From contig CAMDKS010000018.1 of assembly GCA_945900755.1 (NCBI GenBank), positions 1,201 to 65,200 on the forward strand: 64,000 nt of DNA. Reading direction: 5' to 3'. This document shows positions 10,200-33,668 of the stretch, piece by piece. Under the pieces are notes generated by a model. It was given only the letters and a program-made list of their open reading frames with translations, searched no databases and had not been told where the DNA came from. Each line of letters starts with the position of its first letter. Position 1 is the stretch's first letter. The translations under genes and the position numbers were made by a program. Origin of the DNA: Bdellovibrio sp. ZAP7. Lineage in GTDB: Bacteria; Bdellovibrionota_B; Oligoflexia; Oligoflexales; RGVZ01.

Positions 10200-10233
10200 A
10201 TTGATGGAACCTACTGATTCCTTTATATAAAAT

Positions 10234-12125: not shown

Positions 12126-12848
12126 CTACTGCAGCAAATCGCGTCTAAAGTCATCAAAGGAAGTCCAGCCGAGCAGCCTCAGAATCTCGTCGGACATACT
12201 GACCTTTTGTTCGGGCACAAAGTATTTCTCGATATCGGCCGTGTAGTGCCAGTGGAGCTGTTCCTGAATGTTCGCGATAAATATTATCTTATACTTGTTC
12301 AGCTCCTTGACAGCGTTTCCCGGCTCGTCCGAGTAATGATTTATCTGGTGTCGTCCATACCAAAGCAGGCACTTCACCGGAACGGACTTCATGTCATTGT
12401 CGAGATAGTCACGTTGGTACTTTGGTGGGAAGCCATAGACTGGCCGGCCACCCGCCGCAATATCTAATATCGCCTTGGCGCCGCTGATTTCGCGCAAGAT
12501 CTGGTAGGCAGTGTTCAGAATTGCATCCGTGTCCACAAGTAGGGCTCGCTTCTTTTCCTTAAAAGCTAGCTCTATCGACCCGTATTTCGATTCTAGGTCC
12601 TTTAGCTCCTGTTCAAGGCCTGCCTGCTTCGAGCCAAAATCATGCCAAGCTTCCTTCTTGCCGCTATAATGTTTGTCCTGACCATACGCATGCTCGTTGA
12701 ATCCAACGTCATATTCTTGATCCATGATTCGGTCACGAAGGTCCCAGTAAAGGGTTACTGTAGCTTTCATGTGCTCAAACTTGGCCACGATAGCTGGCTT
12801 AACAGCGAGAATTGCGCTCTCCGCATTACTCAACAGATCACCTCTCAT
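12126..12848 (-). CDS. Hypothetical 240-aa cytoplasmic protein, coupled to the pore-loop membrane protein
   Basis: ATGA overlap with the upstream gene at 12845-12848. There is a coiled-coil-like central part. One Rx4H string (RHQINH, 12336-12353) is present. No family recognised. Confidence 0.6.
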   Translation of the reverse strand: MRGDLLSNAESAILAVKPAIVAKFEHMKATVTLYWDLRDRIMDQEYDVGFNEHAYGQDKHYSGKKEAWHDFGSKQAGLEQELKDLESKYGSIELAFKEKKRALLVDTDAILNTAYQILREISGAKAILDIAAGGRPVYGFPPKYQRDYLDNDMKSVPVKCLLWYGRHQINHYSDEPGNAVKELNKYKIIFIANIQEQLHWHYTADIEKYFVPEQKVSMSDEILRLLGWTSFDDFRRDLLQ

Positions 12849-14044
12849 TTTGGGTCTCCCGTCTTTCCTAAACTCCCCAGCACTACAGACACGATAATGA
12901 TACTAACGACGATCTGTAACGTCATGGCCAACTTTGCTTGCAGGCTTCTCGCGACGGTCCTTCCATCTCCGAGGGTCGCAAATGAACAGAAGCTCAGGTA
13001 CAAGCCATTCACGAGCGCAGACGAATACATGGTCAAGTAGTCAGTCAGGAGCCGCAGGGATGGCTTTGTTATGCCGTCCGTCACCTGGGCGCCATCAGTC
13101 AAATCCCACTCCTCGTCATATTCACCAAGAGCCTTCTTCATTTCTGCTTGAAGGAATTTCTCAGCGTTCTGTAAGCGTGTCGAGCGTACCAACCACTTCT
13201 CCGTGGCATATCCGGGGATTCTTACGTTTGCCTTTTCCTCAACGAGCGAGGCCTCCGTGGGCTTCAGATTTCCGCCGTTAAGACGCTCGATTTCTGAAGC
13301 CAAGAATAGTCTGCGCGGAGCGTAGTACTCTGTATCGGGAACCCCGGCCAGGTCGATGGCATGCGCCTGCACCATCTTTCGCACGAATGCTTTGGTTTCA
13401 TCAGCAAGAAACTTGGCGTAAGCGTCCGGAGAGGTCTCTACAAAGCGCTCCCTTAGTTGTTTGGCAGCTTCGCTGGCATTGAACCCTATCGTGCGCCTTC
13501 GTTCTACTAATTCGCTAACTCGCTCAAGGGACTCGATCTCCTTTAGCGCGTCCACTTGTTTGACGCTTCGCTCCAATTTCGACGGGTGCTGCTCTGGATC
13601 AAAGTGCCCGCCCAGCGCCATTAGATAGGCGTAAACGATTCCGAAGCCAAAGCAGGTAAGCAGAATCCACCGAATTGCTGCCCCAATGATGCGCGACTCC
13701 TGCCGAAGAAACGTTAAAAATATTTTGGCCTGTGACAGCAAGCCAATAATCGTCAGGGCGATGAATAGATTGAATGTCTCAAACCCCATCATCCGACTGA
13801 ATCCGTATTCAAACTGATACCCAGAAATTAAGTCTGTGAAGGACATTCCAGTGTCGCTGGATGAAGTAATGTAGACCCAGGCCGTTCGCAGCAAGAACCA
13901 CTGAGTCCTGTCGAAGTAGAAATAGAATGCCGTCATGACTAAGAGTGCAAATCGAAACCTATATGCGATAGCAACCAGCCTTTTCAAGCCGGCTCTGAGT
14001 TTCGGAGCGGCCCATCTGCACAGATGGAAGATTCTCGATCCCAA
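12845..14044 (-). CDS. Multi-TM protein with a C-terminal NaK/K-channel-like pore loop (TLGDG)
   Basis: Hydrophobic helices lie at about aa 22-45, 88-110 and 118-146. A soluble region of about 200 aa follows. Then comes LYLSFCSFATLGDG (filter-like, nt 12962-12976), followed by the TM helix LAMTLQIVVSIIIVSVVLGSLG. Confidence 0.6.
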   Translation of the reverse strand: MGSRIFHLCRWAAPKLRAGLKRLVAIAYRFRFALLVMTAFYFYFDRTQWFLLRTAWVYITSSSDTGMSFTDLISGYQFEYGFSRMMGFETFNLFIALTIIGLLSQAKIFLTFLRQESRIIGAAIRWILLTCFGFGIVYAYLMALGGHFDPEQHPSKLERSVKQVDALKEIESLERVSELVERRRTIGFNASEAAKQLRERFVETSPDAYAKFLADETKAFVRKMVQAHAIDLAGVPDTEYYAPRRLFLASEIERLNGGNLKPTEASLVEEKANVRIPGYATEKWLVRSTRLQNAEKFLQAEMKKALGEYDEEWDLTDGAQVTDGITKPSLRLLTDYLTMYSSALVNGLYLSFCSFATLGDGRTVARSLQAKLAMTLQIVVSIIIVSVVLGSLGKTGDPK

Positions 14045-14668: not shown

Positions 14669-15778
14669 ATGAATCAGGTCTTTTTGTCACTTGTCGGAGG
14701 GTGTCTGTTTTTTAACGGATGTGTAGGGACTCTTAATCATCGTAAATTAAGTGACGATGTGTACGTATTTGATGTGGCAGGCACCTCCAAGGAAAGAGCT
14801 GAGCGGCAGTTTAATATTGAAGGCCGTTACTATTGCCCGAAAGAATTTGATATTGAAAATATTGAAAGCAAGAACAATCTATACACGGCGACTATTCGCT
14901 GCTTCGATCAAATTGAAAACAAAGCGGCTGAGGATCTAATCACGGCTAAATTTAATGCAAGAGAAAAGGATCGCTTGGAAAGCGACTCTAATGCCGCCGA
15001 TCATTTCAACAGTATTAAAAAAGAATGTGCCCTCTGCGTCTCGACAAAAATTGTTAGTAGTAAATGCGAGGAAGTAGCGCAAGAGGTGCTTCGTGGCAGC
15101 TTTGACGATGAAAAATTAACAGACAACGCTTATTTGATTGTGGGTAAAATCTGTCTATCCGAGTCATCTAAAAACTATTTGAATCACTGTAAAACGGCCA
15201 GCATGCATTATCGCGACTCCGACGACCCAAAAGACAAACAACTGGCGATTAAATACTATCGAAAAGGCTGTGAGGCTAATGACGGAGAATCCTGTACAGG
15301 CGCATACCTGCTTTCCTCTTCAGTCGATAAAAAATTGGCCGCTAATATCTTCAAAAAAGTTGTTGAGATTGTTTCTAAAGAGTGTGCGAGTGACTACAAA
15401 GATTCTTGCGCCGATCTAGAAAAAATTTCAAACGAATGCGACCCTAGACTCACTCTTTGTAAGGATATTCGTCTGGAAGTAGCAAAAAATAATAGGAATA
15501 ACGACGAAAAGCGCCTCGCAGAAAAACAGCGCCAAGACGAAGTGCTACGAAATGAGGAGGATCGTGCTGAAGAGAAGTCTGCCCGCAACCGTCAAATTGA
15601 ACTGCAGCAGGAACAGTTGAATGCTCAAGAACGGGCTGCTAATGCCGCCGCTTGGCGGGACCTCGGCAACACACTACAAAAGAACCTGACACCACCTCCT
15701 ACACCGGCTCCGACGCAGTTTAATTGTTCGACCAATTCTATCGGTTCTTACAGTTCCACAAATTGTTATGGGCACTAA
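14669..15778 (+). CDS. Cys-rich Sel1-like-repeat lipoprotein with a C-terminal charged coiled coil
   Basis: MNQVFLSLVGGCLFFNGC has a signal peptide and lipobox. AIKYYRKGCEANDGESCTGAYLL is an Sel1/Hcp-like repeat. The tail is rich in E, R and Q. A GGAGG RBS is present. Confidence 0.65.
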   Translation: MNQVFLSLVGGCLFFNGCVGTLNHRKLSDDVYVFDVAGTSKERAERQFNIEGRYYCPKEFDIENIESKNNLYTATIRCFDQIENKAAEDLITAKFNAREKDRLESDSNAADHFNSIKKECALCVSTKIVSSKCEEVAQEVLRGSFDDEKLTDNAYLIVGKICLSESSKNYLNHCKTASMHYRDSDDPKDKQLAIKYYRKGCEANDGESCTGAYLLSSSVDKKLAANIFKKVVEIVSKECASDYKDSCADLEKISNECDPRLTLCKDIRLEVAKNNRNNDEKRLAEKQRQDEVLRNEEDRAEEKSARNRQIELQQEQLNAQERAANAAAWRDLGNTLQKNLTPPPTPAPTQFNCSTNSIGSYSSTNCYGH

Positions 15779-16419
15779 ATTTTGATGGTTATGTCGCGTC
15801 AGAGAATGGGACTCTAAATTTTGAAGCCAAAGCATCGGACTTCTGGCAGCTACCTACGTTAATACTGTAGCGTGTGAAGGCGTCAAGGTTGAGCTCTATG
15901 CCTGACATTGCGAGTTATCGGATACTTCGGAGGTATTGTTCAATTGCCAATGATACTAATTTCATATCAATAGTCCGATTGGGACAATTGATTTGGCCTG
16001 ACTATTCTAACTAATGGTTTCGTATAGCAACTTTCCGAGCAAAGCCTACAAAAAGCATCCCAAAGCAAATTAAACGAGGGTTTAGGTTCTGCCGCCGACT
16101 GTTACAATAATGAATCCAGATGCCGACGTAACATCCGAGCGACCATTTGCAGACGATGATTTAGACCGAACCGACTCAATCAGTAATAGAATACCTACTA
16201 CGCCGGATGAATTTCGCATACTTGAGACCTGCAATGACTTGGGCACTAATGATCTAATTCTCTTGCATTCTCCTTGCGCCCTTGCCTACGAATTAGTAGG
16301 ATTCAGAATATTTTGAAAAGCATGCGGAGCCGAGCCGCAAGGTTCGAGGATATTGGCCCGTTTTTACCTTCTTAAAGAATCGTAACGATTATTTTTTGAA
16401 CTGAAAGAGATCTTTATAA

Positions 16420-19400
16420 ATGCAATCGATCAACTGCTATATCCCACGGAAAACTGTTCTCGATGGCTCTGAGGATTTCGTCGTCAATCTTTCGGCCCTC
16501 ACGGATCTGACCGAGGCTGACGCGGCAGAGTTCCTTGATGCCAATGTCCTCACGTCCGGCATGGAAGATTTGGTCATGCAGTCTTTTGATCGACTGAGTG
16601 GCGGGCAAAGCAGGGGCATCTTCAAGCTCTCCGAGTCCATGGGTGGCGGCAAAACCCAAAGCATGATCGTTGTTGGGTTGTTGGCGCGCTTTCCTAGCCT
16701 TGCTTCTCCATTGTCTTTCAAGAAGCAGCCCAAATCGGTGAGACCCGATAAGGTAATCGCATTTTCGGGACGTGCCACGGACGAGAATGTTTGGGTATCA
16801 ATTGGCAAGCAGCTCGGTGCCAATTTCCAGGCTGACTCTGCGCCATCCGAGAAGCAGTGGGCGAATCTGTTTGCTGAAAAGAGTATTCTCATTCTTCTTG
16901 ACGAATTAGCATTTTACTTAGTTCATGCGGCTTCTAGAGGGACAAAGGAGCAGGGCGAGCGATTTTCGACTCTTACCGCTCTTGCACTTACAAATCTGTT
17001 TGGGGCCATTCGAGACTATAAGGAAGCTGGGCGAGTAGCAGTCGTCGTAGCTGACCTTCAGAAAGACTGGGACCAAGGTCACGAAGATCTCGCTCGCATC
17101 ATGAGATCAAACGGTTCCCTTGGAGGCACAATTCAGAGTGCTGACAATGAGATGAGTAAAGGCGCAATTTCGATCTCGCCGGTCGACAACACGAAGGACG
17201 AACTTTATGCAATCCTTCGGAAAAGGCTTTTTAAAGAAACCAGAATTACTCCCCAGGAAAAAATGGCCGTCATCGACGCTTATTTTGGCGAACTTCAAAT
17301 TGCGAAAAAGGCCGGGCTAATCGAACGGGCACTACCGACGATCCGCGAAGAACTTGAAGTCTCTTATCCGTTCCACTTTTCAACAAAGCACCTCATTGAA
17401 ACATTCAATGACAACCCTGGTTTTCAGAAAACTCGTGATGTCATACGCCTTATGGCGGCTATCGTGCGATCAATTTGGGGAAAGGGTCCGCAAGAGGTTG
17501 AGCGGCACAATCTCATATCACTTGCATCTCCAGATTTAAATGTCGCGATAGTTTCCTCCCGCTTTAAAGAGATAAAGCGATCCCTGGAGGGGGCACTGCA
17601 AACGGACATTGCTAATGCCGGGACATCCTATGCGGAAAGCTTGGATGCAGGAACAAATGGACTTTCGACCATAATTGCAAAATGGATTTACGCAGCATCA
17701 CTGTCAGACACACGTCCTCGAGGGCTATCAAAAGAAGAGGTTGCTGAATACCTCGCTGCACCTGGGGTTGATCTTTCCGGTCTCGGGCATGGCCTAGACG
17801 AACTTTACCGGACTTGTTGGTACATCGATCAGCTCCGCAGTGGTAAGTATTTCTTCAATAAGACTAAAAATCTTAACGCCCAATTAAACACCTATGTCAA
17901 AACTTGCTCCGACTCTGATCGGGATTCGGTCATCGACAACAAGTTGAAAGAGATGTTCGATCCGAGAGAGAAGCGCTGCTATCAACGCATCTTCATTCAC
18001 GCCGATCTCACGAGGGTGACGCTAGAGCGAGACAAAACAACCCTTGTCATTTGTGGCCATGAGGCGCCCTATCAGGATTTTTTCGACCGCGAAAAATACA
18101 AGAATCGTGTTGTGTTCCTGACCTTAGTCGATCCGGCCGGACTCGTTCGTATTCGTAACCATGCGAGGCGTTATTGGGCGATTGAGCAGGTTCTGAAAGA
18201 CATGAGCAGGGATGATGCTCAATATGAAAAAGCAAAGGGTGAAAGAACAACCATTCAGTCCGATTTGTTTTTGACAATTCGATCAATTTACGCCCGATTG
18301 CTATATCCACTAGGAGACCCGGCCACGGGCGAATCAAAACTTAACGCTGAGAACTTGCTCGACACCTATTTGGACCCGAATTCTGGCCAATCCATAAAAT
18401 ACGATGGCAAGGATAACTCAACAAAAGGGGAGCTTGTTATCGAGGCTACGCTTCAATCACTTCACAAGTTTCTGGTAATTGCAGCTGCGGCAGGCGCAGA
18501 TAAAGTCAAACCCTATAGGTCCCTTCGCACTCGTGTCGAACAGTTTCTGTTTCCTTTATCTGGAAGGGTGGCCTGGGATCAGCTTGTTGATGCGGCGGCG
18601 AGCAAAGGAATTATGGTCTGGGCGGAGCCAGGAACATTGGACCGAATGAAGGATGTTCTTTTGACTGCTGGTGAGTGGCGCGACCAAGCGGGTCAAGTCC
18701 TTAAGCCTCCTTTCGAGGAGGTTACTGCGGTAAGCATCGAATATACTCGCGACACAAAGACGGGCCAAATTACAACTACGGACATTAGGCTTTTCCATGC
18801 CGATTCACTCTGGGTCAGTGAGGATTCAGGTACTCCCCGTAAGATTGCGCACATTGAAGCATTCGCTTCTAACGCAATGGTCCTAGTATTTCAGGCGCGG
18901 GACTCCACCGCAAAGAATAAGGAGGGGAAGCCCTATCGGGTCGAGAACCACATTGATTTCAAGCATGATTTTCTTCCCAGCACGACCGCCGGCAGTAGGA
19001 TTTTAAAAATCGGAGTAGTTCCCCCGGATGCCAAGGCTAAGTGGACTTCCGACGGTACTGATCCAGCTAATAACGGCACTCCGTACGCAAGCGCTGGAGT
19101 CGAAGTTAGGGACGGCGCTTGTGTGAAAGTCTATGCCGAGAAAGCCTCAGTTCATAAAGAGATCAGCATTTTAGTCCCTACAAAAGGGACGGAGACTGGC
19201 TCCGGTAGCAGTGGATTCTCCCCAATTGCGCATGACAAACCCACCACCTTGGCAGGGAGAGCCCTTAAGGAGCTGGGTCTAGCCTCGCGATTAAATGTGC
19301 ACACGTTCTTAAGCCACCTACCCACTGCATGCATATTTACTGGAGCAAGGGCGAAAGTCCTTAAAGCTGAGTCGGACAACCGCGTTTATGTTTCTTGGGA

Positions 19401-19581
19401 CAGCAAGGCGCGGATCACTGCCGACCGGTTGCTCAAAGCATTTCAATATTTAGATAGTGAGCTACCCGATGCTGAGTGGGAGCTAGATGCTGCTTCGATT
19501 ATTTTTGCCTCTGGGAAAGATCTTATTGAGTGGCAATCTAAACAGTCAATTGGAATCGCACAGGAGTTAATTACGCAATGA
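16420..19581 (+). CDS. DUF499-type large P-loop ATPase (defence operon gene 1)
   Basis: 1053 aa. The Walker A motif SESMGGGKTQS is at nt 16639-16656, and ILILLDELAFY is Walker B-like. Size and N-terminal layout match DUF499-type ATPases as I remember them. Confidence 0.8.
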   Translation: MQSINCYIPRKTVLDGSEDFVVNLSALTDLTEADAAEFLDANVLTSGMEDLVMQSFDRLSGGQSRGIFKLSESMGGGKTQSMIVVGLLARFPSLASPLSFKKQPKSVRPDKVIAFSGRATDENVWVSIGKQLGANFQADSAPSEKQWANLFAEKSILILLDELAFYLVHAASRGTKEQGERFSTLTALALTNLFGAIRDYKEAGRVAVVVADLQKDWDQGHEDLARIMRSNGSLGGTIQSADNEMSKGAISISPVDNTKDELYAILRKRLFKETRITPQEKMAVIDAYFGELQIAKKAGLIERALPTIREELEVSYPFHFSTKHLIETFNDNPGFQKTRDVIRLMAAIVRSIWGKGPQEVERHNLISLASPDLNVAIVSSRFKEIKRSLEGALQTDIANAGTSYAESLDAGTNGLSTIIAKWIYAASLSDTRPRGLSKEEVAEYLAAPGVDLSGLGHGLDELYRTCWYIDQLRSGKYFFNKTKNLNAQLNTYVKTCSDSDRDSVIDNKLKEMFDPREKRCYQRIFIHADLTRVTLERDKTTLVICGHEAPYQDFFDREKYKNRVVFLTLVDPAGLVRIRNHARRYWAIEQVLKDMSRDDAQYEKAKGERTTIQSDLFLTIRSIYARLLYPLGDPATGESKLNAENLLDTYLDPNSGQSIKYDGKDNSTKGELVIEATLQSLHKFLVIAAAAGADKVKPYRSLRTRVEQFLFPLSGRVAWDQLVDAAASKGIMVWAEPGTLDRMKDVLLTAGEWRDQAGQVLKPPFEEVTAVSIEYTRDTKTGQITTTDIRLFHADSLWVSEDSGTPRKIAHIEAFASNAMVLVFQARDSTAKNKEGKPYRVENHIDFKHDFLPSTTAGSRILKIGVVPPDAKAKWTSDGTDPANNGTPYASAGVEVRDGACVKVYAEKASVHKEISILVPTKGTETGSGSSGFSPIAHDKPTTLAGRALKELGLASRLNVHTFLSHLPTACIFTGARAKVLKAESDNRVYVSWDSKARITADRLLKAFQYLDSELPDAEWELDAASIIFASGKDLIEWQSKQSIGIAQELITQ

Positions 19582-20276
19582 AAGACCAGCGAGACTCTCA
19601 GCCGACTTTCGGCATTGTTGACTTCGAAGCGGAACACGGACTGTTTCAAATCAGCCCAGATGCAGATGGAATCTGTACTCTTATTCTTGTTACTCATACT
19701 GAACGTGGTTATCCGAGGCGCGAGCTTGCCACGATCTCTAGAGGAGTATGGAACGAAATTTCAAATGCAGTATCGAACGAATTGCTTCGTGGAATGACCT
19801 CAGCTGAAAAAGGGGCGAAGCTTCCATCATTTCGACCAGGCACAATCGCCGTAGGTGCACTTATTACTCGAGAGTTGGCAGTTTTGCTTTGGTCACTTAT
19901 GGAGGACAGTGAGGGTACGCATCCTGATGCCCTACTTTCGGGGTGGCGGCAGCTTGCCAGGGAGGAACGCTGGTGGCTTTATGCTCGAGCAAGCAATACA
20001 TCGCAACGTCAGGGGCAGGGTTGGCGACGTGCGCTTTTTTTTGCCTTAAATGATCCAGCTGAGACGCGTAGTGCTCCTCGAATTTCTGAGAACAATGATC
20101 AGCTTCAAGGGGCGGTGCTAACCACTGACGGCGAGATGCGACGAGAAAACACCATGGCAAAGACTCAACGAGAGGTACCCAGCACTTCGACGCACGCAGA
20201 TAAGGCTAAGGAGTCGATGGCTAAAGGAGATCGAAAACTCGGTAGTCATGCGCAAGACACCACCACGATAAGATAG
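19578..20276 (+). CDS. Small DUF3780-like protein (defence operon gene 2)
   Basis: ATGA overlap with gene 1. FGIVDFEAEHGLFQI and LAREERWWLY...GWRRALFFAL resemble the DUF3780 pattern (recollection only). The C-terminal 70 aa look disordered. Confidence 0.6.
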   Translation: MKDQRDSQPTFGIVDFEAEHGLFQISPDADGICTLILVTHTERGYPRRELATISRGVWNEISNAVSNELLRGMTSAEKGAKLPSFRPGTIAVGALITRELAVLLWSLMEDSEGTHPDALLSGWRQLAREERWWLYARASNTSQRQGQGWRRALFFALNDPAETRSAPRISENNDQLQGAVLTTDGEMRRENTMAKTQREVPSTSTHADKAKESMAKGDRKLGSHAQDTTTIR

Positions 20277-20290
20277 CGAGTGTCTGCCCC

Positions 20291-23287
20291 ATGTCTACAA
20301 AGCGGTTGTCCTTACTTGAAGTCCAGTTCCCTATCGCTCAGCTTTCGTTGGAGAGCCAGCTCGAACGTGATGCCCGTACTGGCAAAATACTCAATTCGCT
20401 TGGGAAATGGTGGGGCACAAAGCCAATCGTGCTGACACGGGCGATTATACTCGCTTCGCTCTTTGAAGCATCTGATGATAACGCTCGCTGGCCCGAAGAT
20501 CTCCGGATTTTCTTTAAACTTATGTGTTTTGACAATTCTGGTATGTGGAAGCGTAGAAATTCGGATTTCTCTGAGATTTCCGCAAAAATTCCACACTCAA
20601 AATTTGTTTCGCTTTGCTTCCCGTTCGCAAACGCAGATGAAGCCGACCTCTTTCGTGACCAGAATAGCTGGGCGCTTCGCATGAGTCCTGAAAATCTCAA
20701 AAGGAAAGAGACCCTACAGAAGCGGATCTTTTACACTTTAGATCATGCGGTTCAGCGTCGCTACTGCCGTCGGGTCGAGGAAATCGACGGTCCTCCAGAG
20801 GAGAGTTGGGCTGAGATCAACGAATACTGCGGAACCAATTGTGACTCTCTCCAAGGCTGGGTCGAGCAGATTTCGCAGCGCCGCTACGGGAGGAAGCTGC
20901 GAGTTGGCGATGCGTTCTCCGGCATGGGGTCAATTCCTTTCGCAGCTGCTGAACTTGGGTGCGATGTCTATGCGTCAGATCTCAATCCGGTCGCTTCACT
21001 TCTGACTTGGGGGGCACTTAATGTAATCGCCGGTCCCAAGGAGTTTCACGCAAAGGTTTCCGCTGCCCAAGAAAACCTATTTAGGGACATGGATGATTGG
21101 TATCGCAGTGGGAAACTTGAGACTAGCGCCGAAGGTTGGCGAGCGACCCTACACTTTTATTGCGTCGAGATAATGGTCCCAGAGTGGGATGGTTGGCGTA
21201 TTCCCATTTTGCGTACCTGTCAGATTTTAAAGTCAGCCAAACAAATATGGGTAGAGCTTATCCCAAACGAAGCTGAGAAGTGCTTCGACTTCAGGATTAA
21301 TCATGGCGGTTCTGGCTTCGAGGCGGCTTTGCCAGGAACCAAAGAAGGACCTGATATTGTTTGTCCGCAAGCCCTATGGGACATCCTCCATCATCGGGAA
21401 ATGACTGATAATGCCTCGCGGCGGATTAGTCTCAACACTCTTATCGAAAATCATGGTGGGTTGCGGCTCTGGGAAAAGACCGACTGCGTTCCACGAGCTG
21501 GTGATTTTTATCTCGAAAGGCTCTACTGCATTCGCTGGGAAAATGATGACGGCAAGACAGTATTTAGGGAACCGCATGCCCATGACATACGTATTGAAGC
21601 TGAAGTAACAAGCCAAGTGCAGACTCAATTACCAGACTGGCAAAATGCCGGCTGGGTCCCTGATTGGCGCATTCAGGATGGTCAAAAGACACGAGAGCTA
21701 ATCAGGACAAGGGGTTGGACGTTTTGGCACCACCTGTTTACCCCCAGACAGCTTCTTATGGCGGCGGAGTATTCGAGGCGGATATCGGAGGTACCTAAAG
21801 ATGTCCGTCCGGCTTTGATTCTCTCTCTAGGTCAAATTATCAACTACAGTGCCCGTCTTTGTCGCTGGGATTCCAGCGGCAACAGTGCGAAAGAGGTTTT
21901 TTACAACCAGGCATTTAACACTCTATTTAATTTCTTGGGGCGGGACTGGTCCATGATGGACAATCCAGCTAACTCTTCGCATTTCTCTCGACCGTCATTG
22001 GGAAAAGTTACATCGGGCCTAAAGGATGCTCGTAAAGTTGAATCTGATTGCGATATTTGGATAACAGACCCGCCATATGCGGATGCGGTAAATTATGAGG
22101 AACTCTCGGAGTTTTTCCTGGCTTGGTATAAGCCGCACCTTCAAGAATGTTTTCCTCATTGGCATACAGATTCAATGCGCGACACGGCAGTAAAGGGGAA
22201 CGATGCACCGTTCCGTGTGTCGATGGCAGAATGTTACTCGAAGCTTGCGGCCAAGACGCCTCCCGATGGCCTGCAAGTGTTGATGTTCACGCACAAAGAT
22301 ACTGATGTGTGGGAGGATCTGGCACTTATCATGTGGGCAGCTGGATTACAGGTTAAGCAGGTATGGAGTATTGTGACCGAAACTGGGGCTGGTGCAATCA
22401 AAAAGGGCAATCATGTACAAGCTACCTATAACATGGTCCTACGGAAGCGGCCCACTGATGCCCCTATGGGTTTCGTAGATCTTGTTATTCCCCAGATAAA
22501 TAGCCGAGTCAGGGAGGTTATAACTCACATGCGAGATAGCCAGGTTCAAGCTGGTGCAGTCTCTTGCGGCTACACTGATACCGATTACCTCCTAGCCGCT
22601 CAAGCAGTGGCTGCAGAAGTTGTCACCGGTTTTTCCAGTATAGATGGCATTGACCTCGAAGAAGAGCTGCGAACGCCAAATAGGCTGCGGGACAATTCGG
22701 TACTTCGGGCCATGATGAACCAGGCCAAACGCACTGCTGTAGATTTTCTCGTTCCGTTAGGATTGGAAGAGCACCTGCGCAGGTCTCCGGATGCAACTAG
22801 TGCGTACCAGTTTTGGAGGTCCCTCTCGCCGGAAGAGAAATTCCTTCTTAAATCGCTCGAACTGGAGTCCGGTGGATTGAAAAAGATCGGCACGTTCCAA
22901 GATCTTGGCCGAGCCTATGGAATTGCTGATTACGATGCGCTACTTGGGCAAGTTATCGCCAACGACGCGCGAACTAAACTTCCATCCGAATTCCCTCGAC
23001 CCGATCTAACACGTTGGGCCGAAGTTCCAGCGAATGAGCGTGACCAATTCGCGCATAGTGTGACCCGCCACCTCTACCACGCTCTTCAGCTTCTTGAGGA
23101 AGGGGCAGATCCCGAGCGTGCACTGAAGCATCTCATCGACAGCACCAACTTTTGGGCCGATCGACATAGCAGGCACTTAGTCATCCTTAGCTACCTATAT
23201 CAAACCACGGAAGCAATAGCCGCATGGGCCAGTGTTCGACCCCATATCCAGACCCTTCGCCTAGCAGTGGAGAATCATCGTGCTTGA
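20291..23287 (+). CDS. DUF1156-type DNA methyltransferase, DPPY class (N6-adenine or N4-cytosine)
   Basis: N-terminal FPIAQLSLESQLER...LGKWWGTKPIVLTRAIIL is DUF1156-like. The SAM loop is GDAFSGMGSIPFAAAELG...ASDLNPVA. The catalytic motif ITDPPYADAV has DPPY at nt 22067-22078. Confidence 0.85.
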   Translation: MSTKRLSLLEVQFPIAQLSLESQLERDARTGKILNSLGKWWGTKPIVLTRAIILASLFEASDDNARWPEDLRIFFKLMCFDNSGMWKRRNSDFSEISAKIPHSKFVSLCFPFANADEADLFRDQNSWALRMSPENLKRKETLQKRIFYTLDHAVQRRYCRRVEEIDGPPEESWAEINEYCGTNCDSLQGWVEQISQRRYGRKLRVGDAFSGMGSIPFAAAELGCDVYASDLNPVASLLTWGALNVIAGPKEFHAKVSAAQENLFRDMDDWYRSGKLETSAEGWRATLHFYCVEIMVPEWDGWRIPILRTCQILKSAKQIWVELIPNEAEKCFDFRINHGGSGFEAALPGTKEGPDIVCPQALWDILHHREMTDNASRRISLNTLIENHGGLRLWEKTDCVPRAGDFYLERLYCIRWENDDGKTVFREPHAHDIRIEAEVTSQVQTQLPDWQNAGWVPDWRIQDGQKTRELIRTRGWTFWHHLFTPRQLLMAAEYSRRISEVPKDVRPALILSLGQIINYSARLCRWDSSGNSAKEVFYNQAFNTLFNFLGRDWSMMDNPANSSHFSRPSLGKVTSGLKDARKVESDCDIWITDPPYADAVNYEELSEFFLAWYKPHLQECFPHWHTDSMRDTAVKGNDAPFRVSMAECYSKLAAKTPPDGLQVLMFTHKDTDVWEDLALIMWAAGLQVKQVWSIVTETGAGAIKKGNHVQATYNMVLRKRPTDAPMGFVDLVIPQINSRVREVITHMRDSQVQAGAVSCGYTDTDYLLAAQAVAAEVVTGFSSIDGIDLEEELRTPNRLRDNSVLRAMMNQAKRTAVDFLVPLGLEEHLRRSPDATSAYQFWRSLSPEEKFLLKSLELESGGLKKIGTFQDLGRAYGIADYDALLGQVIANDARTKLPSEFPRPDLTRWAEVPANERDQFAHSVTRHLYHALQLLEEGADPERALKHLIDSTNFWADRHSRHLVILSYLYQTTEAIAAWASVRPHIQTLRLAVENHRA

Positions 23288-23305
23288 ATCAAGGAATCAT
23301 GAGGC

Positions 23306-26047
23306 ATGACATTAAACCGGTTCAGCTCTCGCCTAGGCAGCTTGTATAAATCGTTCCTGTTGGAGCGGCTGAATGGTGCGACCTCTTATGATCGGATAGC
23401 GGGATATTTTCAGTCAAGCTTGTTGGGACTTGCTGCTCGCGAACTAAAGGCAATCAAACGAGTCAGGATTGTTTGCAACACTGATGTCAATCCGGCGGAT
23501 GTGCATGCGGTGCGTCAAGCCATTGGTCCTCGTCGAGAGGAACTTACAGATGCTCTCCTTCACATGATTTGGAATAGCGGCGATTTCCCACATTTGGTTG
23601 ACGTCTATGGAGAGAAAGCGAAGGAGCGGTTGCGCATACTTCAAGAGCTGGTCACGCCAGATCTAGCCAATGGTCGGAGCTTTGAAATTCGAATTGTTCC
23701 CGACTGTGAATTTGGCTTCCTGCATGGGAAAGCTGGTGTACTGCACTATCCCGACGGACGGGCCACTTCCTTTATTGGCAGTGCCAATGATAGCGAACGA
23801 GCCTGGTCAAAAAATTACGAGTTAGTTTGGGAGGATGCGGGAAAAGACAGCGTAAAATGGGTGCAGGACGAATTTGAGGCTCTCTGGAGCTGCGGCTTTC
23901 CGATCAATGAATTTATTGTAAAGCAAATCGGTCGCCTTGGTCAGCGGACAATTATTGAACACATAGGCGATTGGAAAAAGAAACCCGAAGTCGGCCCTGT
24001 ACTTGCTGAAGTCCCAGCATGCACTGAGCTGTTTGGGTTTTGGGATCATCAAAAATATTTCATCAAGAAGGCTTTTGATGAACATCGTCTCTATAGCGGT
24101 CTCGCCGGAAGGGGGGCTCGGTACCTGTTAGCTGATGGAGTCGGGTTGGGTAAGACTCTCCAGATGGGTGGTTTGGCGAAACTGATCGGAACACTCGATG
24201 ACGAACCGATACTGGTTATAGCACCTAAAGCGGTAGTTTCTCAGTGGCAAGATGAATTGCTGGGTATGCTGGCATTGCCTAGTGCTCTTTGGACCGGTCA
24301 AGGATGGCTAACCGAACGTGATGAGTTTCATCCAGCTACAGAGAGTTCGGTGACGAACTGTCCGCGAAAAATTGCCATTGTTCCTACTTCGGCAGTTCTG
24401 AGTGCGGGCCGGAGTCGATATAACGGGGCATTGTCTGCGGAGTTGCTCAAACAGCATTTTAGTTGTGTGCTTTGGGATGAGGCACACAAAATTCGCCGCT
24501 ACAATGTCCGGGAACCTCAAGTGTGGCAGCAGGCCCAGATGAACTTGCTTTATGAATGGGGCATGCAACTTGCTGCACGCACTAAAACCATGATTCTGGC
24601 GACGGCGACACCAGTGCAGTTACATCCCATAGAGCTTTGGGATTTGCTGGCGGTTCTCAATGTAAATAATCCGCAGGTGCTCGGTGAACGCCACAGTCGA
24701 TGGCGTGATGTGTCCCAGCCGGCAATCTTCGATATTCTTGCAGGTCGCGTAGTTTTGGATGGTGCCTACGATAAGTGGGAATACTGGAAAGATCCCGTGC
24801 CACGTGAACAGAACAATGAGGTGTTTGGCCATGTGCGCAACTCCCTGGGTTTAGGTGAGACAGACGAAGTAGCCACGAATGCTGACTTTGATCGTATTGA
24901 TCCCTTGGACCAAGAAGATATGGGGCGGATCAATCTTCGGGATTTGAACCCTTTCACACTTCGAGTTATCAAACGTTCCCGTAAACGTCTCGAGCAGGAA
25001 GGGAAACTGGTCCGCATTGAGATGGTGCCTGTAGGCGATAACCGCCCAGTCGTGTCAACCCATAGCGTCCGCCAGGCTTTGGAGTTGGCGGAACTGTTTT
25101 CGAAGGAGCTTCATAAACGCACCCCGGCAAGTGGTTTTATCAAAACCATGCTTCAAAGGCGTGTTGGAAGCTCGGTCCTTGCTGGGTTTAATACTGCCGT
25201 TCGGATGCTAGCCGAGCGTGAAGTTCAAGATGAAGACGGAATGGCCGAGGATGGCGACACAATTTATCCGCTGACGGGTAGTGAACGAGAAATTCTAGAG
25301 CGACTACGTGATCACCTGAATCGACAGCTTAAGACCGAGGGTGATCCGAAATTTGATAGAGTCCTCGAGATCCTTGAGTCTGAGTTCGATCGATCAAAGT
25401 GGCTCGATCGCGGAGTCCTCATTTTTTCCCAGTACTTTGACTCTGCATATGCGCTCTGTGAATTTTTGGCGCCGAAAATTGCAATTCCTATTGGGCTCTA
25501 CGCTAATTCGTCGTCCTCGAAGCTATTCGATGAAGGCAAGGTTCAGTCCGTCGATCGGGATATCCTGAAGGAAAAGGTTAAGGTCGGAGCACTAAAGATT
25601 CTTGTTGGTACAGATGCTGCCAGCACCGGCTTAAACTTGCAGGGGTTGGGTGGGCTTATCAACTTAGACCTTCCATGGAATCCAACCACACTCGAACAGC
25701 GGAAAGGTCGAGTGCAACGTGGCACCATTGCAAAGCGCATCCCGTTCTGCAATTTGCGCTATGACGAAGGTGTTGAACAAAGGCTCTTCAATGTCCTAAC
25801 GGGTCGTATCAGAGAGATCACAGACATCTTTGGCACAATTCCGGATTTCATAACGGATAAATGGGTAAGCGGGATGTTGGAGAATCGTTCTTTGAGTGAA
25901 AACGATCTAGTTAAAATGGTGACTGGCGAAGCGGGTAGCCCATTCACAGTTAAGGAAACTTACGAATACTTGGATGAATCATGGGAAAGCACTGCGGAGG
26001 TATTGAACTCTAAGGAAGCTGCCAGAGTCTTCCTAGAGAAATGGTAA
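23306..26047 (+). CDS. PLD-family (single HKD) nuclease domain fused to an SNF2/DEAH helicase
   Basis: HGKAGVLHYPDGRATSFIGSANDS is an HxK...GSxN motif, starting at about nt 23723. Helicase motifs are LADGVGLGKTLQ (I), VLWDEAHKIRR (II), LATATPVQ (III) and LEQRKGRVQRG (VI). Confidence 0.85.
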   Translation: MTLNRFSSRLGSLYKSFLLERLNGATSYDRIAGYFQSSLLGLAARELKAIKRVRIVCNTDVNPADVHAVRQAIGPRREELTDALLHMIWNSGDFPHLVDVYGEKAKERLRILQELVTPDLANGRSFEIRIVPDCEFGFLHGKAGVLHYPDGRATSFIGSANDSERAWSKNYELVWEDAGKDSVKWVQDEFEALWSCGFPINEFIVKQIGRLGQRTIIEHIGDWKKKPEVGPVLAEVPACTELFGFWDHQKYFIKKAFDEHRLYSGLAGRGARYLLADGVGLGKTLQMGGLAKLIGTLDDEPILVIAPKAVVSQWQDELLGMLALPSALWTGQGWLTERDEFHPATESSVTNCPRKIAIVPTSAVLSAGRSRYNGALSAELLKQHFSCVLWDEAHKIRRYNVREPQVWQQAQMNLLYEWGMQLAARTKTMILATATPVQLHPIELWDLLAVLNVNNPQVLGERHSRWRDVSQPAIFDILAGRVVLDGAYDKWEYWKDPVPREQNNEVFGHVRNSLGLGETDEVATNADFDRIDPLDQEDMGRINLRDLNPFTLRVIKRSRKRLEQEGKLVRIEMVPVGDNRPVVSTHSVRQALELAELFSKELHKRTPASGFIKTMLQRRVGSSVLAGFNTAVRMLAEREVQDEDGMAEDGDTIYPLTGSEREILERLRDHLNRQLKTEGDPKFDRVLEILESEFDRSKWLDRGVLIFSQYFDSAYALCEFLAPKIAIPIGLYANSSSSKLFDEGKVQSVDRDILKEKVKVGALKILVGTDAASTGLNLQGLGGLINLDLPWNPTTLEQRKGRVQRGTIAKRIPFCNLRYDEGVEQRLFNVLTGRIREITDIFGTIPDFITDKWVSGMLENRSLSENDLVKMVTGEAGSPFTVKETYEYLDESWESTAEVLNSKEAARVFLEKW

Positions 26048-27653: not shown

Positions 27654-29702
27654 CTACTTGACTCCTTTAGCCACGACTTGAAGCTTTTCACCGCTAGAGC
27701 TAGCTACAGACTTGCTATTTTTTCGCTTAAAATCGTTTGAATTAGATTCGTAATATGGCGCCCAGTAGTTATCAAAATGATCTTTTGCCTCCAAATGTGC
27801 GTAGGCCTTCATAACAGTAGTAATAGTATCGTGGAGAACGGCTGCGGCTATTTGGAACCCATTGGGATTGTTTTTAATCCAATCTGTTGCAATAATGTGT
27901 CTAAATCCATGAGGTCCGAAACCATTAGTATAATCATACAGATACTTTCTAGTGAGCTCGGTTACCGAGCCTGAGATTGATAACACTCCCGCAGACGGCC
28001 CGACAAATAATCGAGTAGAATTTTTAGCCCCACCGAGGTACTTGCGGTGATCGAGGTAATTGGTAATTATTCGCTCATCGGGGATCGCAACTATCACGTC
28101 ATACGGTTTGTGCTGTGCTCCTTTGGTGTTTTTGAAATCATCCGCTTCAAAGCGAACCCGCCACTGATCTCCAATTTTGTAAAGGTTTGGCTTAGCACCC
28201 AGACATGTCATGATTTCGTAGTTTTTTTTACGCAGTGGGTTGCACGAGAGCATGTAAATCAGTAGCCTGTCTCTGTATAGAATGGCCTGCTCACGCTTGG
28301 TAAGAGACTTCGACTGTTTATGTTCCATCATCGCATCATAATTTTGCTGAAATATGAATATCGCTTGCAATGGATGCTGCATTATCAAAACGTTGTCAAT
28401 TGGCTCTAGGGTTCTAGATTTTTTGCACCTCTCAGCAGCCTTTTTATACTTACGGCACATTTGGTTTGTTTTAGCGCACCGCTCGAACCATCCTGTCGCC
28501 GCTTCTCCGTTTGCATAGGGAGTCGACTTAAACTCCGCTTCATGCTGAGTCAAATAGCCCGTATGTTCGCGCGTTAACGATGCCGCGAAAACAGGTAAAA
28601 CTTTATCTCCTGTGGAGTTGAAACCTCGGCGTTTTTGCTTCCATTCAACGTAGCCTTTGATGAGGTCTGCTCGCACCAAAAGTCCCAATGAAATGTCGGC
28701 TTCCGTGAAATCCTTTTTATGACAACTGAGTAGGTAGCCAAAAAAACCAGAAATAGTACTCACGTTCATCTGTTCACTTGCTCCGCGTTCCTCCCCGCGT
28801 CGTTTTGACCATTGGCCTCGATCAGACCTTAAAAGGTCGTCCAACACAGGCGAAGTTTTGTACTCCACATATGCCAGCCATTCAGCCTTCAAGCGATCGG
28901 ACCATTTATCGGACGGGAACACTTCAGAACTGTCAATCATTGCTTTCGACACATGACCAAAAACGGTTTTTTGAGTGGGCCGAGCCCTTCGGCCAAGAAG
29001 CATTCTAGTTCGCTCCAGACGTCCTGACAAAGTCCCGATTGGCACTTCGAACAGCTCCTCAAGCACTTCAAAATCAACCTCGCTTGATAGTGTCGGCAGC
29101 CTGCCCTTCGCCCACTCTGGAAAAGTTACGCTCGGGTGCCTGACTCCGGCGCCTACACAAGCTGACGTAAATTGAACCTTGTCGGCGGATCGAGTCCTTC
29201 CTAGGCGGGTCATCTTTATGGCGTAAATTTGCGCGAATGCCTCTGAAAAATCGGCAGGAAGGGTAGAAATATTCAAGACACTTGACTCCGTCAGAGATGT
29301 TGCACCCGTCATAGCCAACCACAACTTTGCCAATTTTCTTAACTGCGAGGCCGCGTTAGCGATTGTGCTATTGCTTGCTGGACTTGGAATTGCTTTGTAA
29401 TACGCCACAAAAGCCTTGATATCATTTATCACTGCTGCCGCTGCAAAATCATCACCGACTGGTGAATCCATCGTTTTTGGAGCACCAGCGCCTTTATAAA
29501 AGAACCACATTTTTAAGGCACCTCGGCCAGGCGTGTTTTGACGTGGGTCGGAGGTGACATATGCACTTAACAGCTCCCCATAGGTCGGCGGAATCAATTT
29601 AGCTGACAAGTCTCTGGCCGTGTTTTCGGCATTAAAATTCGTAATGAGCCTAGTGGCCTTTTGGGAACGAGTGCCGAGGTGGACCTTTTTGAATTTAAGC
29701 AT
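27654..29702 (-). CDS. Large (682 aa) tyrosine recombinase with an N-terminal extension of about 450 aa of unknown function
   Basis: The C-terminal catalytic set is NPLRKKNY (R), GPHGFRHIIATDW (HxxR) and LHDTITTVMKAYAHL (H, Y). There is an 8-nt overlap with the upstream wHTH gene. Confidence 0.8.
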   Translation of the reverse strand: MLKFKKVHLGTRSQKATRLITNFNAENTARDLSAKLIPPTYGELLSAYVTSDPRQNTPGRGALKMWFFYKGAGAPKTMDSPVGDDFAAAAVINDIKAFVAYYKAIPSPASNSTIANAASQLRKLAKLWLAMTGATSLTESSVLNISTLPADFSEAFAQIYAIKMTRLGRTRSADKVQFTSACVGAGVRHPSVTFPEWAKGRLPTLSSEVDFEVLEELFEVPIGTLSGRLERTRMLLGRRARPTQKTVFGHVSKAMIDSSEVFPSDKWSDRLKAEWLAYVEYKTSPVLDDLLRSDRGQWSKRRGEERGASEQMNVSTISGFFGYLLSCHKKDFTEADISLGLLVRADLIKGYVEWKQKRRGFNSTGDKVLPVFAASLTREHTGYLTQHEAEFKSTPYANGEAATGWFERCAKTNQMCRKYKKAAERCKKSRTLEPIDNVLIMQHPLQAIFIFQQNYDAMMEHKQSKSLTKREQAILYRDRLLIYMLSCNPLRKKNYEIMTCLGAKPNLYKIGDQWRVRFEADDFKNTKGAQHKPYDVIVAIPDERIITNYLDHRKYLGGAKNSTRLFVGPSAGVLSISGSVTELTRKYLYDYTNGFGPHGFRHIIATDWIKNNPNGFQIAAAVLHDTITTVMKAYAHLEAKDHFDNYWAPYYESNSNDFKRKNSKSVASSSGEKLQVVAKGVK

Positions 29703-30102
29703 GACTCGTCCTCCCTCTGCGGCGCAGGCACTCCAGACCGATCGGGGTAATCACTAGTTCACCCTCCTCAGTGCGTGAGACAAGACGTTTTCGGATGAGT
29801 GCCGCGATAGCGCTATGAGTCGCAGTTAGTGAGCGCCCAAGGACTGTCGCTATGGACCTCAGGGCAGGCGGGCATCCATTTTTGATGGTCAGGTTCCTTA
29901 ATGCGACTAGTGCAACCCGCTGAGCAGACGTCGGCGCCCGCAGGATTGGCGCTGATGGTTTTCGCCTGCGTAGGACAGCTCGGACGGCCTCGTGCGGCAA
30001 ATTTAGTTGGATTGCGAGAAGCCTGCTGGTCGGTACAAATCGAGACCGCTGAATTGCCTCTTCAATAAGCATCTTTGTTTTTTGTTCTATAGTTTGGGTC
30101 AT
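29695..30102 (-). CDS. LexA-N-terminal-like winged-HTH DNA-binding protein
   Basis: TSAQRVALVALRNLTIKNGCPPALRSIATVLGRSLTATHSAIAALIRKRLVSR...ITPIG resembles the LexA DNA-binding domain. The ATG at 30102 with GAGGA upstream is preferred over the track start at 30135. Confidence 0.65.
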   Translation of the reverse strand: MTQTIEQKTKMLIEEAIQRSRFVPTSRLLAIQLNLPHEAVRAVLRRRKPSAPILRAPTSAQRVALVALRNLTIKNGCPPALRSIATVLGRSLTATHSAIAALIRKRLVSRTEEGELVITPIGLECLRRRGRTSHA

Positions 30103-30135
30103 AAATTCCTCGTAAAAGTAATGGGTTATTAGCAT

Positions 30136-33658: not shown

Positions 33659-33668
33659 TTGAATTTAT

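Follow-up and report, generated by a model that had tools for sequence, protein, structure and literature searches.

The four-gene set at positions 16420-26047 of the window, the 64,000-nucleotide stretch of Bdellovibrio sp. ZAP7 contig CAMDKS010000018.1 analysed here, is that of MANTIS, an anti-phage system that already has a name and was characterised recently, and what is new is a distant member of it. The locus is very probably an intact, deep-branching MANTIS operon (earlier named Gao_RL and also classified as the Type-2 DUF499-centred BREX-related system, Type-2 BR) carried on an island at tRNA-Met of an uncultured bacterium. The initial annotation had described the four genes as a distinct, mechanistically uncharacterised defence system. 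Profile searches place them in an already characterised one, described as Gao_RL, as Type-2 BR (PMC12839542) and as MANTIS (10.64898/2026.09.23.753747), and the supposedly uncharacterised system belongs to a defence family that has been named and validated and that has had a described mechanism since September 2026. As Gao_RL/MANTIS is already named and characterised, the finding is an ordinary one. The defence function initially proposed holds, the gene set being that of Gao_RL/MANTIS.

Gene set, order and relatives

According to bioRxiv 10.64898/2026.09.23.753747, which cites Gao et al. (2020), Gao_RL (also Gao_29) was tested in its E. coli form and shown to defend. The remark in the initial annotation that the domain combination had been flagged in surveys is correct. 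Type-2 BR was delineated in January 2026 (NAR, PMC12839542) as a DUF499 ATPase, a standalone DUF3780 protein, a DUF1156 N6-methyltransferase and an HKD-Swi2/Snf2 helicase. The bioRxiv preprint of September 2026 equates Type-2 BR with Gao_RL/MANTIS and provides genetics, biochemistry and structures for the system of Pseudomonas aeruginosa AZPAE15024 (10.64898/2026.09.23.753747). This preprint is not peer-reviewed and by its own account did not reconstitute the nuclease activity of MtsD in vitro and leaves the role of MtsB unresolved.

The ORF list of the window contains four intact, co-directional open reading frames:

16420-19581, + strand: mtsA, 1053 aa, DUF499 AAA+ ATPase
19578-20276, + strand: mtsB, 232 aa, standalone DUF3780 protein
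20291-23287, + strand: mtsC, 998 aa, DUF1156-type N6-adenine DNA methyltransferase
23306-26047, + strand: mtsD, 913 aa, single-HKD (PLD-type) nuclease fused to an SF2/SNF2 helicase-like ATPase

The mtsA/mtsB junction is a 4-nt ATGA overlap (19578-19581), and gaps of 14 nt and 18 nt separate mtsB from mtsC and mtsC from mtsD, all as first annotated. Simple-sequence tracts and invertible repeats indicative of phase variation were not found within the operon. The PADLOC models DUF499, DUF3780, DUF1156_MTase and PLD_Helicase (PDLC02189-02193) match the four proteins nearly full length with E-values from 1e-16 to 2.5e-218. All four are also matched by the 'anti-phage-associated' families NF042961-NF042964 of NCBIfam, and the Pfam domains DUF499, DUF3780, DUF1156 and PLDc_2 plus SNF2-rel_dom plus Helicase_C all score above their gathering thresholds. 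The NCBIfam equivalog cut-offs, which are NCBI naming thresholds and not definitions of a family, were missed by all four proteins (525 versus 1200, 64.6 versus 200, 919.9 versus 1000 and 921.6 versus 1100 bits), the clade of the window copy being remote from the E. coli-like seeds.

The co-occurrence and synteny of the four families, to which the initial annotation had looked, are found across genomes: the order A-B-C-D is collinear in 29 of 43 related loci collected through MtsB alone, with contig ends cutting most of the others. Annotated copies of the four genes are present on an Acinetobacter baumannii plasmid, on an E. coli chromosome and in Desulfosarcina. In the A. baumannii and E. coli copies PGAP names the genes anti-phage, and the 4-nt A/B overlap recurs. 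Identity to the E. coli proteins is 26% (A), 28% (B), 34% (C) and 35% (D). The clade of the window copy occurs mainly in MAGs of Verrucomicrobiota, Planctomycetota, Desulfobacterota and some Proteobacteria. Identity within the clade is 44-79%, compared with only 26-35% to the forms of E. coli and A. baumannii, P. aeruginosa sequences lying outside the comparison. When E. coli genomes and plasmids were searched by megablast, the operon had no match, which rules out a known enterobacterial or plasmid copy. The exact window proteins are recorded in metagenome assemblies only. Given the 26-35% identity and the scores below the equivalog cut-offs, any mechanistic detail is transferred across a deep family split. 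So divergent an intact operon could be useful for comparing features that may be universal to MANTIS, including hemimethylation, MtsA/MtsB-dependent loading and inverted-site preference.

Conserved motifs and the variable region of MtsC

The domain calls and motif coordinates first annotated (MGGGKT, ILILLDE, ERWWL, FSGMGS, DPPY, HKD and DEAH) were confirmed throughout. MtsA carries a Walker A motif, MGGGKT, at 16639-16656 (K78) and a Walker B motif, ILILLDE, at aa 156-162 (16885-16905; D161/E162), with GGGKT and the DE of LLDE invariant in 34 of 34 homologues. It matches PDLC02192 at 3.5e-121 over profile positions 25-1021 of 1022, NF042962 at 3.9e-157, and Pfam DUF499 with 53 bits against a cut-off of 23. 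A sub-threshold hint of CHB_HEX_C_1 (E = 0.074) was observed in its tail at aa 862-909, where FnIII-like domains were considered.

MtsB matches Pfam PF12635 (7.7e-19; 68.6 bits against a cut-off of 27) and PDLC02191 (1e-16). Its ERWWL motif (aa 130-134) lies within EERWWLYA (aa 129-136), which is invariant in all 40 homologues examined, and the position of its gene between mtsA and mtsC makes it a standalone DUF3780 protein within the core locus, a Type-2-specific marker. The AlphaFold2 model has four strands and five to six helices, is confident over residues ~10-135 (pLDDT 88-96 for 10-130), and as a prediction matches the published four-strand, five-helix fold. The tail of ~70 aa (~160-232), already annotated as disordered, has low pLDDT and no secondary structure in the model. 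Foldseek comparison of the MtsB model with the PDB returned nothing with E < 0.1, in agreement with the papers and giving no functional clue. Sequence searches of one copy of the PDB returned no significant match for MtsA, MtsB or MtsC, and for MtsD only generic SNF2 proteins (RapA, DDM1), none of them a MANTIS structure.

MtsD matches PDLC02193 at 1.2e-192 over the full profile (1-905 of 905) and NF042964 at 5.8e-277, and contains the Pfam domains PLDc_2, SNF2-rel_dom and Helicase_C, with a single PLD/HKD domain. The nuclease residues are H140-G-K142 (23723-23731) and G158-S-A-N161 (GSAN; 23777-23788), followed by helicase motif I, GLGKT, at 24143-24157 (K283) and DEAH at aa 391-394 (24476-24487). 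HGK, GSxN, GxGKT and DExH are invariant in 29 of 29 homologues. The HKD spacing is non-canonical, with H147 at +5 instead of an aspartate and GSxN four residues more distant than in HxKx4Dx6GSxN. The initial suggestion that a single HKD must dimerise agrees with the MtsD dimer reported for MANTIS, which forms one PLD active site (10.64898/2026.09.23.753747).

MtsC matches PDLC02189 at 2.5e-218 and NF042963 at 2e-276. Motif I, FSGMGS, occupies aa 209-214 (20915-20932) and motif IV, DPPY, aa 593-596 (22067-22078), and both FxGxG and TDPPY are invariant in 34 of 34 homologues. Between them lies a variable insert (aa ~316-585) with the following core:

21776-22045, + strand: predicted TRD core of MtsC, aa ~496-585, from hypervariability

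In pairs of systems with 95-99% identical MtsA and MtsD, MtsC is only 75-82% identical, the segment at aa ~496-585 dropping to 17-50% identity compared with >90% in the C-terminal half. The position of this segment, flanked by motif I and DPPY, fits that of the central TRD in the preprint (10.64898/2026.09.23.753747), and diversification of MtsC in its central insert amid near-identical MtsA and MtsD matches the TRD-swap result in bioRxiv 10.64898/2026.09.23.753747. On the variability map, the likely specificity determinant of MtsC falls at aa ~496-585. The intact open reading frames and conserved catalytic residues together argue for selection on the full set of activities.

The tRNA-Met island and the upstream region

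A 23.4-kb integrative island at tRNA-Met, flanked by 55-bp direct repeats, carries the operon:

10232-10286, no strand assigned: attL-like direct repeat (tRNA remnant), left end of the island; Rfam partial tRNA at 10242-10303 (- strand)
31158-32159, + strand: Mrr-family type IV (modification-dependent) restriction enzyme, co-resident and outside the operon; Pfam Mrr_N 1.4e-20, Mrr_cat 8.4e-34; PADLOC mREase_IV 1.9e-79
32209-33456, - strand: divergent tyrosine integrase adjoining the tRNA; phrog_1 integrase 1.9e-10; Pfam Phage_integrase 3.5e-4, below cut-off
33667-33721, no strand assigned: attR-like direct repeat that overlaps tRNA-Met in its 3' part; all 55 bp are shared with 10232-10286
33669-33744, - strand: tRNA-Met (CAU), integration target of the island; ARAGORN, Rfam RF00005 62 bits

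Both ends of the island are placed at single-base precision, an aid to any cloning. The 3' end of tRNA-Met is repeated once more at 746-793 (48 bp). The tRNA-borne island and the neighbouring Mrr of the initial annotation are both retained, the former now sharpened to tRNA-Met with direct repeats. The further 'defence-like cargo' annotated there is not, as no other island gene matches PADLOC. Searches of ten neighbours with PADLOC, NCBIfam and PHROGs recognised only Mrr and integrase-like proteins, and no homologues of the neighbours of the window operon were found beside other MANTIS loci. An Mrr-type methyl-dependent nuclease adjoins MANTIS both here and in E. coli 13KWH46. This adjacency could reflect a functional pairing, in which unmarked DNA would fall to one system and DNA with foreign marks to the other.

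Upstream of the operon, a gap of 640 bp has no ORF with a Pfam match, no small ORF preceding mtsA is common to 34 loci, and a sigma-70-like promoter was not found. The window as a whole yielded no candidate for MtsR. The 13-bp palindrome AATCGTAACGATT (6+1+6) does exist at 16378-16390. The window contains 20 palindromes of this type where 15.6 would be expected, the density of arm-6 inverted repeats (spacers of 0-10 nt) is 0.38 per 100 bp, and the sequence is missing upstream of mtsA in 14 relatives. Its proposed role as an operator was therefore rejected, the palindrome being at chance level, unconserved and with no promoter-like site nearby.

Alternative readings, proposed mechanism and comparison with known systems

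The divergence of the window copy bears on how closely it follows the P. aeruginosa system. A MANTIS clade with a different site length or symmetry, no orientation preference, or regulation by the MtsB tail replacing MtsR, or else a locus that is silent or acts as a methyltransferase only, would fit the deep divergence, a disordered MtsB tail extending beyond the 195-aa E. coli and A. baumannii proteins, and the lack of MtsR and of a recognisable promoter. We nevertheless regard it as unlikely, as the architecture is identical to that of the characterised form, phase-variation repeats are lacking, and the four open reading frames are intact with every catalytic residue kept. It is likewise unlikely that this deep clade, with its non-canonical HKD spacing, long disordered MtsB tail and lack of MtsR, differs in site recognition, orientation logic or regulation.

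Assignment to a different DUF499-centred relative, either Type-1 BR/Hma (helicase-methylase-ATPase) or a reduced Type-3 BREX or DISARM, is highly improbable. Weaker PADLOC matches point in that direction (HmaA, HmaB and HmaC at 1e-22 to 1e-26, PglXI at 2.6e-13, BrxHI/II at 2e-27 and DrmD at 9e-28), but they are 100-190 orders of magnitude weaker than those to the MANTIS-type models and cover shared cores only. Both the standalone DUF3780 protein and the N-terminal HKD, which replaces TUDOR plus REase, count as Type-2 synapomorphies (PMC12839542). Based on Pfam and PADLOC, no match to PglZ was found among island ORFs of at least 110 aa, and none to DUF1998 or DrmA/DrmB among the island ORFs, which also lack BrxA, BrxB and BrxL. 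The initial view of the locus as BREX/DISARM-like, yet neither BREX, DISARM nor a classical type I/III R-M system in having no PglZ and no DUF1998, is consistent with these results. That the locus is a distinct, unnamed and mechanistically uncharacterised four-gene system is barely credible: the domain-only names of the PADLOC-DB v2 (2023) models, the scores below equivalog cut-offs and the 26-35% identity to the E. coli form would suit such a reading, but identical families in identical order are already Gao_RL, Type-2 BR and MANTIS, studied genetically, biochemically and structurally, and each of the four proteins matches its profiles over nearly the whole length.

For the preferred reading, an intact and deep-branching MANTIS operon, the published model is as follows. 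MtsA (AAA+) and MtsB load and activate MtsC, which hemimethylates asymmetric 6-bp sites. Restriction of unmodified DNA falls to MtsD, a dimer that joins an HKD nuclease to an SF2 motor and prefers inverted site pairs (10.64898/2026.09.23.753747). For the window itself, our analysis establishes the gene content and order, the intact reading frames, the conserved motifs and synteny, the hypervariable TRD and the structure of the island. We infer what the enzymes do, how long the site is, that it is hemimethylated and that its orientation matters by homology with the system of P. aeruginosa. MtsA (K78/E162) would load monomeric MtsC onto DNA, its ATP hydrolysis allowing turnover, and the small dimeric MtsB would stimulate methylation. 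MtsC would methylate a single adenine within a short asymmetric site, on one strand only, through its FSGMGS SAM loop and its DPPY catalytic motif. The central hypervariable TRD, with its predicted core at aa ~496-585, presumably sets the site. Hemimethylation would thereby mark self DNA. On incoming unmodified DNA, site-bound MtsABC may license MtsD, in which two single-HKD halves (H140/K142) would form one PLD-type active site driven by the SF2 motor (K283, DEAH 391), with the strongest restriction expected at inverted site pairs.

Compared with characterised MANTIS, the window operon shares the four families, the gene order and the translationally coupled A/B junction, the motifs (Walker A/B, FxGxG, DPPY, HxK...GSxN, GxGKT and DEAH), the hypervariable MtsC insert and carriage on a mobile island. 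It differs in lacking an upstream MtsR (Arc/CopG) or excisionase-type HTH gene, MtsR being an optional repressor present upstream of some MANTIS operons only and not a defining one. MtsB is 232 aa long, with an extra disordered tail of ~35-60 aa relative to the 195-aa E. coli and A. baumannii proteins, and MtsD has ~18-24 additional N-terminal residues relative to that of E. coli, judging by motif numbering (H140/K283 versus H121/K259).

Type-1 BR/Hma likewise combines a DUF499 AAA+ ATPase (HmaC), a DUF1156 N6-methyltransferase (HmaB) and a Swi2/Snf2-type helicase effector (HmaA), but has no DUF3780 protein, and its helicase bears an N-terminal TUDOR plus REase-type nuclease, not HKD (PMC12839542). 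BREX, especially Type 3 (BrxC, PglXI, BrxHII, PglZ, BrxA and BrxF), resembles the window system in its BrxC-related AAA+ ATPase and in a methyltransferase core like that of Type-3 PglXI. In contrast, the window has no PglZ, BrxA, BrxB or BrxL and encodes a dedicated HKD-helicase nuclease effector, and susceptibility to MANTIS depends on inverted sites (10.64898/2026.09.23.753747). With DISARM (DrmA, DrmB, DrmC, DrmD/E and DrmMI/MII) the window has in common an SNF2-type helicase (DrmD, 9e-28, C-terminal lobe), the PLD-type nuclease theme and a methyltransferase, whereas it lacks DrmB (DUF1998) and DrmA, fuses PLD to the helicase, and possesses the DUF499 ATPase and DUF3780. SauUSI also couples a dimeric PLD nuclease to an SF2 motor (10.64898/2026.09.23.753747), but works autonomously and is directed at methylated cytosine, whereas MtsD lacks a TRD and probably acts on unmethylated DNA, downstream of MtsABC. 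Type III and Type ISP enzymes share with MANTIS a preference for inverted site pairs (10.64898/2026.09.23.753747), although in MANTIS the orientation requirement is graded rather than absolute.

Family identity of the operon

The four-gene operon at 16420-26047, encoding the proteins MtsA to MtsD, is a new, divergent member of the known MANTIS family of defence systems. Its genes and motifs are:

16420-19581, + strand: mtsA (gene 1), 1053 aa; MGGGKT at 16639-16656 (+, K78) and ILILLDE at aa 156-162
19578-20276, + strand: mtsB (gene 2), 232 aa; ERWWL at aa 130-134
20291-23287, + strand: mtsC (gene 3), 998 aa; FSGMGS at aa 209-214 and DPPY at 22067-22078 (+)
23306-26047, + strand: mtsD (gene 4), 913 aa; HKD motif H140-x-K142 and DEAH at aa 391-394

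The initial annotation had placed all four ORFs exactly, with an ATGA overlap between mtsA and mtsB and remaining gaps of 14 and 18 nt, and every motif it reported was recovered in place. Each protein has a near-full-length match to a PADLOC model, namely PDLC02192 DUF499 for MtsA (3.5e-121), PDLC02191 DUF3780 for MtsB (1e-16), PDLC02189 DUF1156_MTase for MtsC (2.5e-218) and PDLC02193 PLD_Helicase for MtsD (1.2e-192). These four models are neighbours in the database, and their NCBIfam counterparts, the 'anti-phage-associated' families NF042961-NF042964, were also matched. The PADLOC models for Hma, PglXI, BrxH, DrmD and DpdE gave far weaker matches, confined to shared cores.

A DUF499 ATPase, a standalone DUF3780 protein, a DUF1156 N6-methyltransferase and an HKD-Swi2/Snf2 helicase constitute the Type-2 DUF499-centred BREX-related system, reported from 1120 taxa (PMC12839542; NAR, Jan 2026). 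This is the former Gao_RL/Gao_29 of Gao et al., Science 2020, since renamed MANTIS and composed of MtsA-D plus, optionally, MtsR (bioRxiv 10.64898/2026.09.23.753747, 24 Sept 2026). The initial annotation of a BREX-like but distinct system therefore holds for its parts and its distinctness, but not for the label 'uncharacterised', and the accompanying statement that no mechanistic description existed is outdated by the same preprint. MtsB is given there as 'DUF3870', probably a typo for DUF3780, the name used in Pfam (PF12635), PADLOC, NCBIfam and PMC12839542; the window MtsB is DUF3780, in agreement with Pfam and PMC12839542.

Walker A and B, EERWWLYA, FxGxG, TDPPY, HGK, GSxN, GxGKT and DExH are invariant across 29-40 homologues. 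MtsD carries a single PLD domain (Pfam PLDc_2, aa 19-194) with the signature HGK...GSAN (GSAN at G158-N161), which has no canonical aspartate at +5 and a spacer 4 residues longer than HxKx4Dx6GSxN. Despite this non-canonical spacing, HGK and GSxN are invariant in 29/29 homologues. A sub-threshold CHB_HEX_C_1 match (E = 0.074), an FN3-like beta-sandwich, covers MtsA aa 862-909 (~19003-19146); this candidate domain would fit the FnIII-like domains that about half of Type-2 DUF499 proteins are reported to carry ahead of their C-terminal RRM.

Tandem islands at tRNA-Met

Three direct repeats of the 3' part of a tRNA-Met gene delimit two islands, with the following features:

746-793, 10232-10286 and 33667-33721: direct repeats of the tRNA-Met 3' part, three copies
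~794-10231: island 2 (distal), ~9.4 kb
1050-1625: HicB-like/HTH protein, island 2
1898-3187: Kelch beta-propeller protein, island 2
5794-6654: Prim-Pol, island 2
6647-8281: DUF3987, island 2
9051-10199: tyrosine integrase, island 2
~10287-33666: island 1, 23.4 kb, containing the MANTIS operon
12126-14044, - strand: overlapping ORF pair (240 and 399 aa), island 1, unannotated
14669-15778, + strand: 369-aa Cys- and charge-rich protein, island 1, unannotated
27654-30135, - strand: wHTH/682-aa overlapping gene pair, island 1
31158-32159: Mrr, island 1
32209-33456: divergent integrase adjoining tRNA-Met, island 1
33669-33744, - strand: tRNA-Met

The copy at 33667-33721 is identical to that at 10232-10286 over 55 bp, a 48-bp core is common to all three, and Rfam detects a partial tRNA remnant at 10242-10303(-). 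The three repeats therefore indicate two tandem integrative elements at one tRNA-Met. In content, the replication module of island 2 is reminiscent of a satellite or a small integrative mobile element. Ordinary chromosome is represented by aconitase and the genes past it (RsmE, PrmA, histidine kinase, MacB, FliF, FliH).

Within island 1, a wHTH gene (146 aa; LexA_DNA_bind-like, phrog_3502) precedes the 682-aa gene, the sole recognisable part of whose product is a weak tyrosine-recombinase catalytic region (aa ~524-654); the island would thereby have two recombinase-like genes, this one of unusually large size. ORFs beyond these, the operon, Mrr and the integrase are unannotated: the 240-, 399- and 369-aa proteins have no PADLOC, NCBIfam or PHROGs match and no homologue near other MANTIS loci, and the 399-aa protein has a sub-threshold Ion_trans_2 ion-channel match at its C-terminus.

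Mrr is the only neighbour of the operon that PADLOC recognises as a defence gene, and no neighbour has a homologue beside other MANTIS loci. This methyl-dependent Mrr-family nuclease shares its island with an m6A-writing operon. In E. coli 13KWH46 (L048) the MANTIS copy is likewise on a tRNA-borne island (tRNA-Leu), with an Mrr_cat enzyme (12433-13422; Pfam 1.7e-23) directly 3', which shows no BLAST similarity to the window Mrr. With two instances, the adjacency could be coincidence; it poses a question of compatibility: Mrr would have to tolerate the MANTIS mark.

Synteny, specificity module and upstream region

Related loci were fetched via MtsB alone, giving 43 GTDB loci, 29 of them collinear (A-B-C-D), with contig ends cutting most others. 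PGAP-annotated copies from A. baumannii (conjugative plasmid), E. coli (chromosome) and Desulfosarcina (plasmid) have the same order, and MANTIS is present in 50/5,426 complete E. coli genomes. Several of the related loci (L002, L003, L007, L009, L018, L044) carry 0.7-1.9 kb insertions between mtsB and mtsC or mtsC and mtsD. In the Desulfosarcina BuS5 plasmid, mtsA is split into two ORFs (DUF499 and 'FN3 associated'), an 'ATP-binding protein' gene separates mtsC from mtsD, and mtsD is followed by a TIR-domain gene. The insertions and extra genes look like accessory or backup effectors such as those noted in PMC12839542. A Bryobacteraceae chromosome (L016) has mtsA and mtsB, mtsC only up to residue ~320 (10680-11603), and no mtsD within 10 kb, though the contig runs on; it is possibly a decayed or rearranged copy.

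In the pairs L011/L013 and L021/L024, MtsA and MtsD are 95-99% identical and MtsC only 75-82%. The differences concentrate at window MtsC aa ~316-585, between motif I and DPPY, with minimum identity (17-50%) at ~496-585. This pattern reproduces, in another clade, the evidence of the preprint for the central TRD as the diversifying determinant. An AlphaFold2 model of MtsB (41 sequences) is confident at residues 10-130 (pLDDT 88-96; four strands, five to six helices) and unstructured at ~160-232. Foldseek found no neighbour in the PDB, and no structural homologues are reported in PMC12839542 or bioRxiv 10.64898/2026.09.23.753747.

As judged from sequence, MtsR is absent, because the 640-bp gap 5' of mtsA has no ORF matching any family and no small ORF is conserved there among 34 loci; in place of MtsR, the E. 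coli copy carries an excisionase-type HTH gene of 38 aa. A 13-bp palindrome in this gap, initially suggested as an operator, is a 6+1+6 inverted repeat, of which the window holds 20 against 15.6 expected. At a density of 0.38 per 100 bp for arm-6 inverted repeats with 0-10 nt spacers, ~2.4 are expected in the gap, where the palindrome is the only one. At this chance-level count, with no conservation 5' of mtsA in 14 relatives and no sigma-70-like promoter detected nearby, the operator proposal is unsupported. Phase variation is suggested by neither simple repeats nor invertible segments.

Published mechanism and divergence of the window copy

In the published mechanism, the sites that MtsC hemimethylates are asymmetric and 6 bp long, CAACAC in P. 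aeruginosa AZPAE15024 being one example; methylation requires MtsB and both binding and hydrolysis of ATP by MtsA, whose role is to load MtsC onto DNA. Restriction requires all four proteins and is most efficient at inverted site pairs, and the MtsC TRD sets the specificity of both activities. MtsD, a structural relative of SauUSI, dimerises to form one PLD active site; the preprint's authors concede that they did not reconstitute this nuclease in vitro and do not settle what MtsB does (bioRxiv 10.64898/2026.09.23.753747). The earlier reasoning that a single HKD implies dimerisation was thus correct.

The window proteins share 26% (A), 28% (B), 34% (C) and 35% (D) identity with those of E. coli over nearly full lengths, and all four score below the NCBIfam curated equivalog cut-offs. 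The fetched loci form two groups by identity to the window, 44-79% and 19-36%, the former comprising Verrucomicrobiales, Akkermansiaceae, Roseibacillus, Planctomycetes, Desulfobacterota and some Beta- and Gammaproteobacteria. Given these identities, scores and groups, the general mechanism is transferred to the window locus by homology across a deep split, and site length, hemimethylation and orientation preference are inferred there. MtsD residue numbering (H122/K260 in P. aeruginosa according to the preprint, H121/K259 in E. coli, H140/K283 in the window) makes the P. aeruginosa system a probable member of the E. coli-like group. Exact window proteins have records in metagenome assemblies only. 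What the window copy offers is a distant representative of MANTIS whose TRD is mapped and whose island has exact boundaries.
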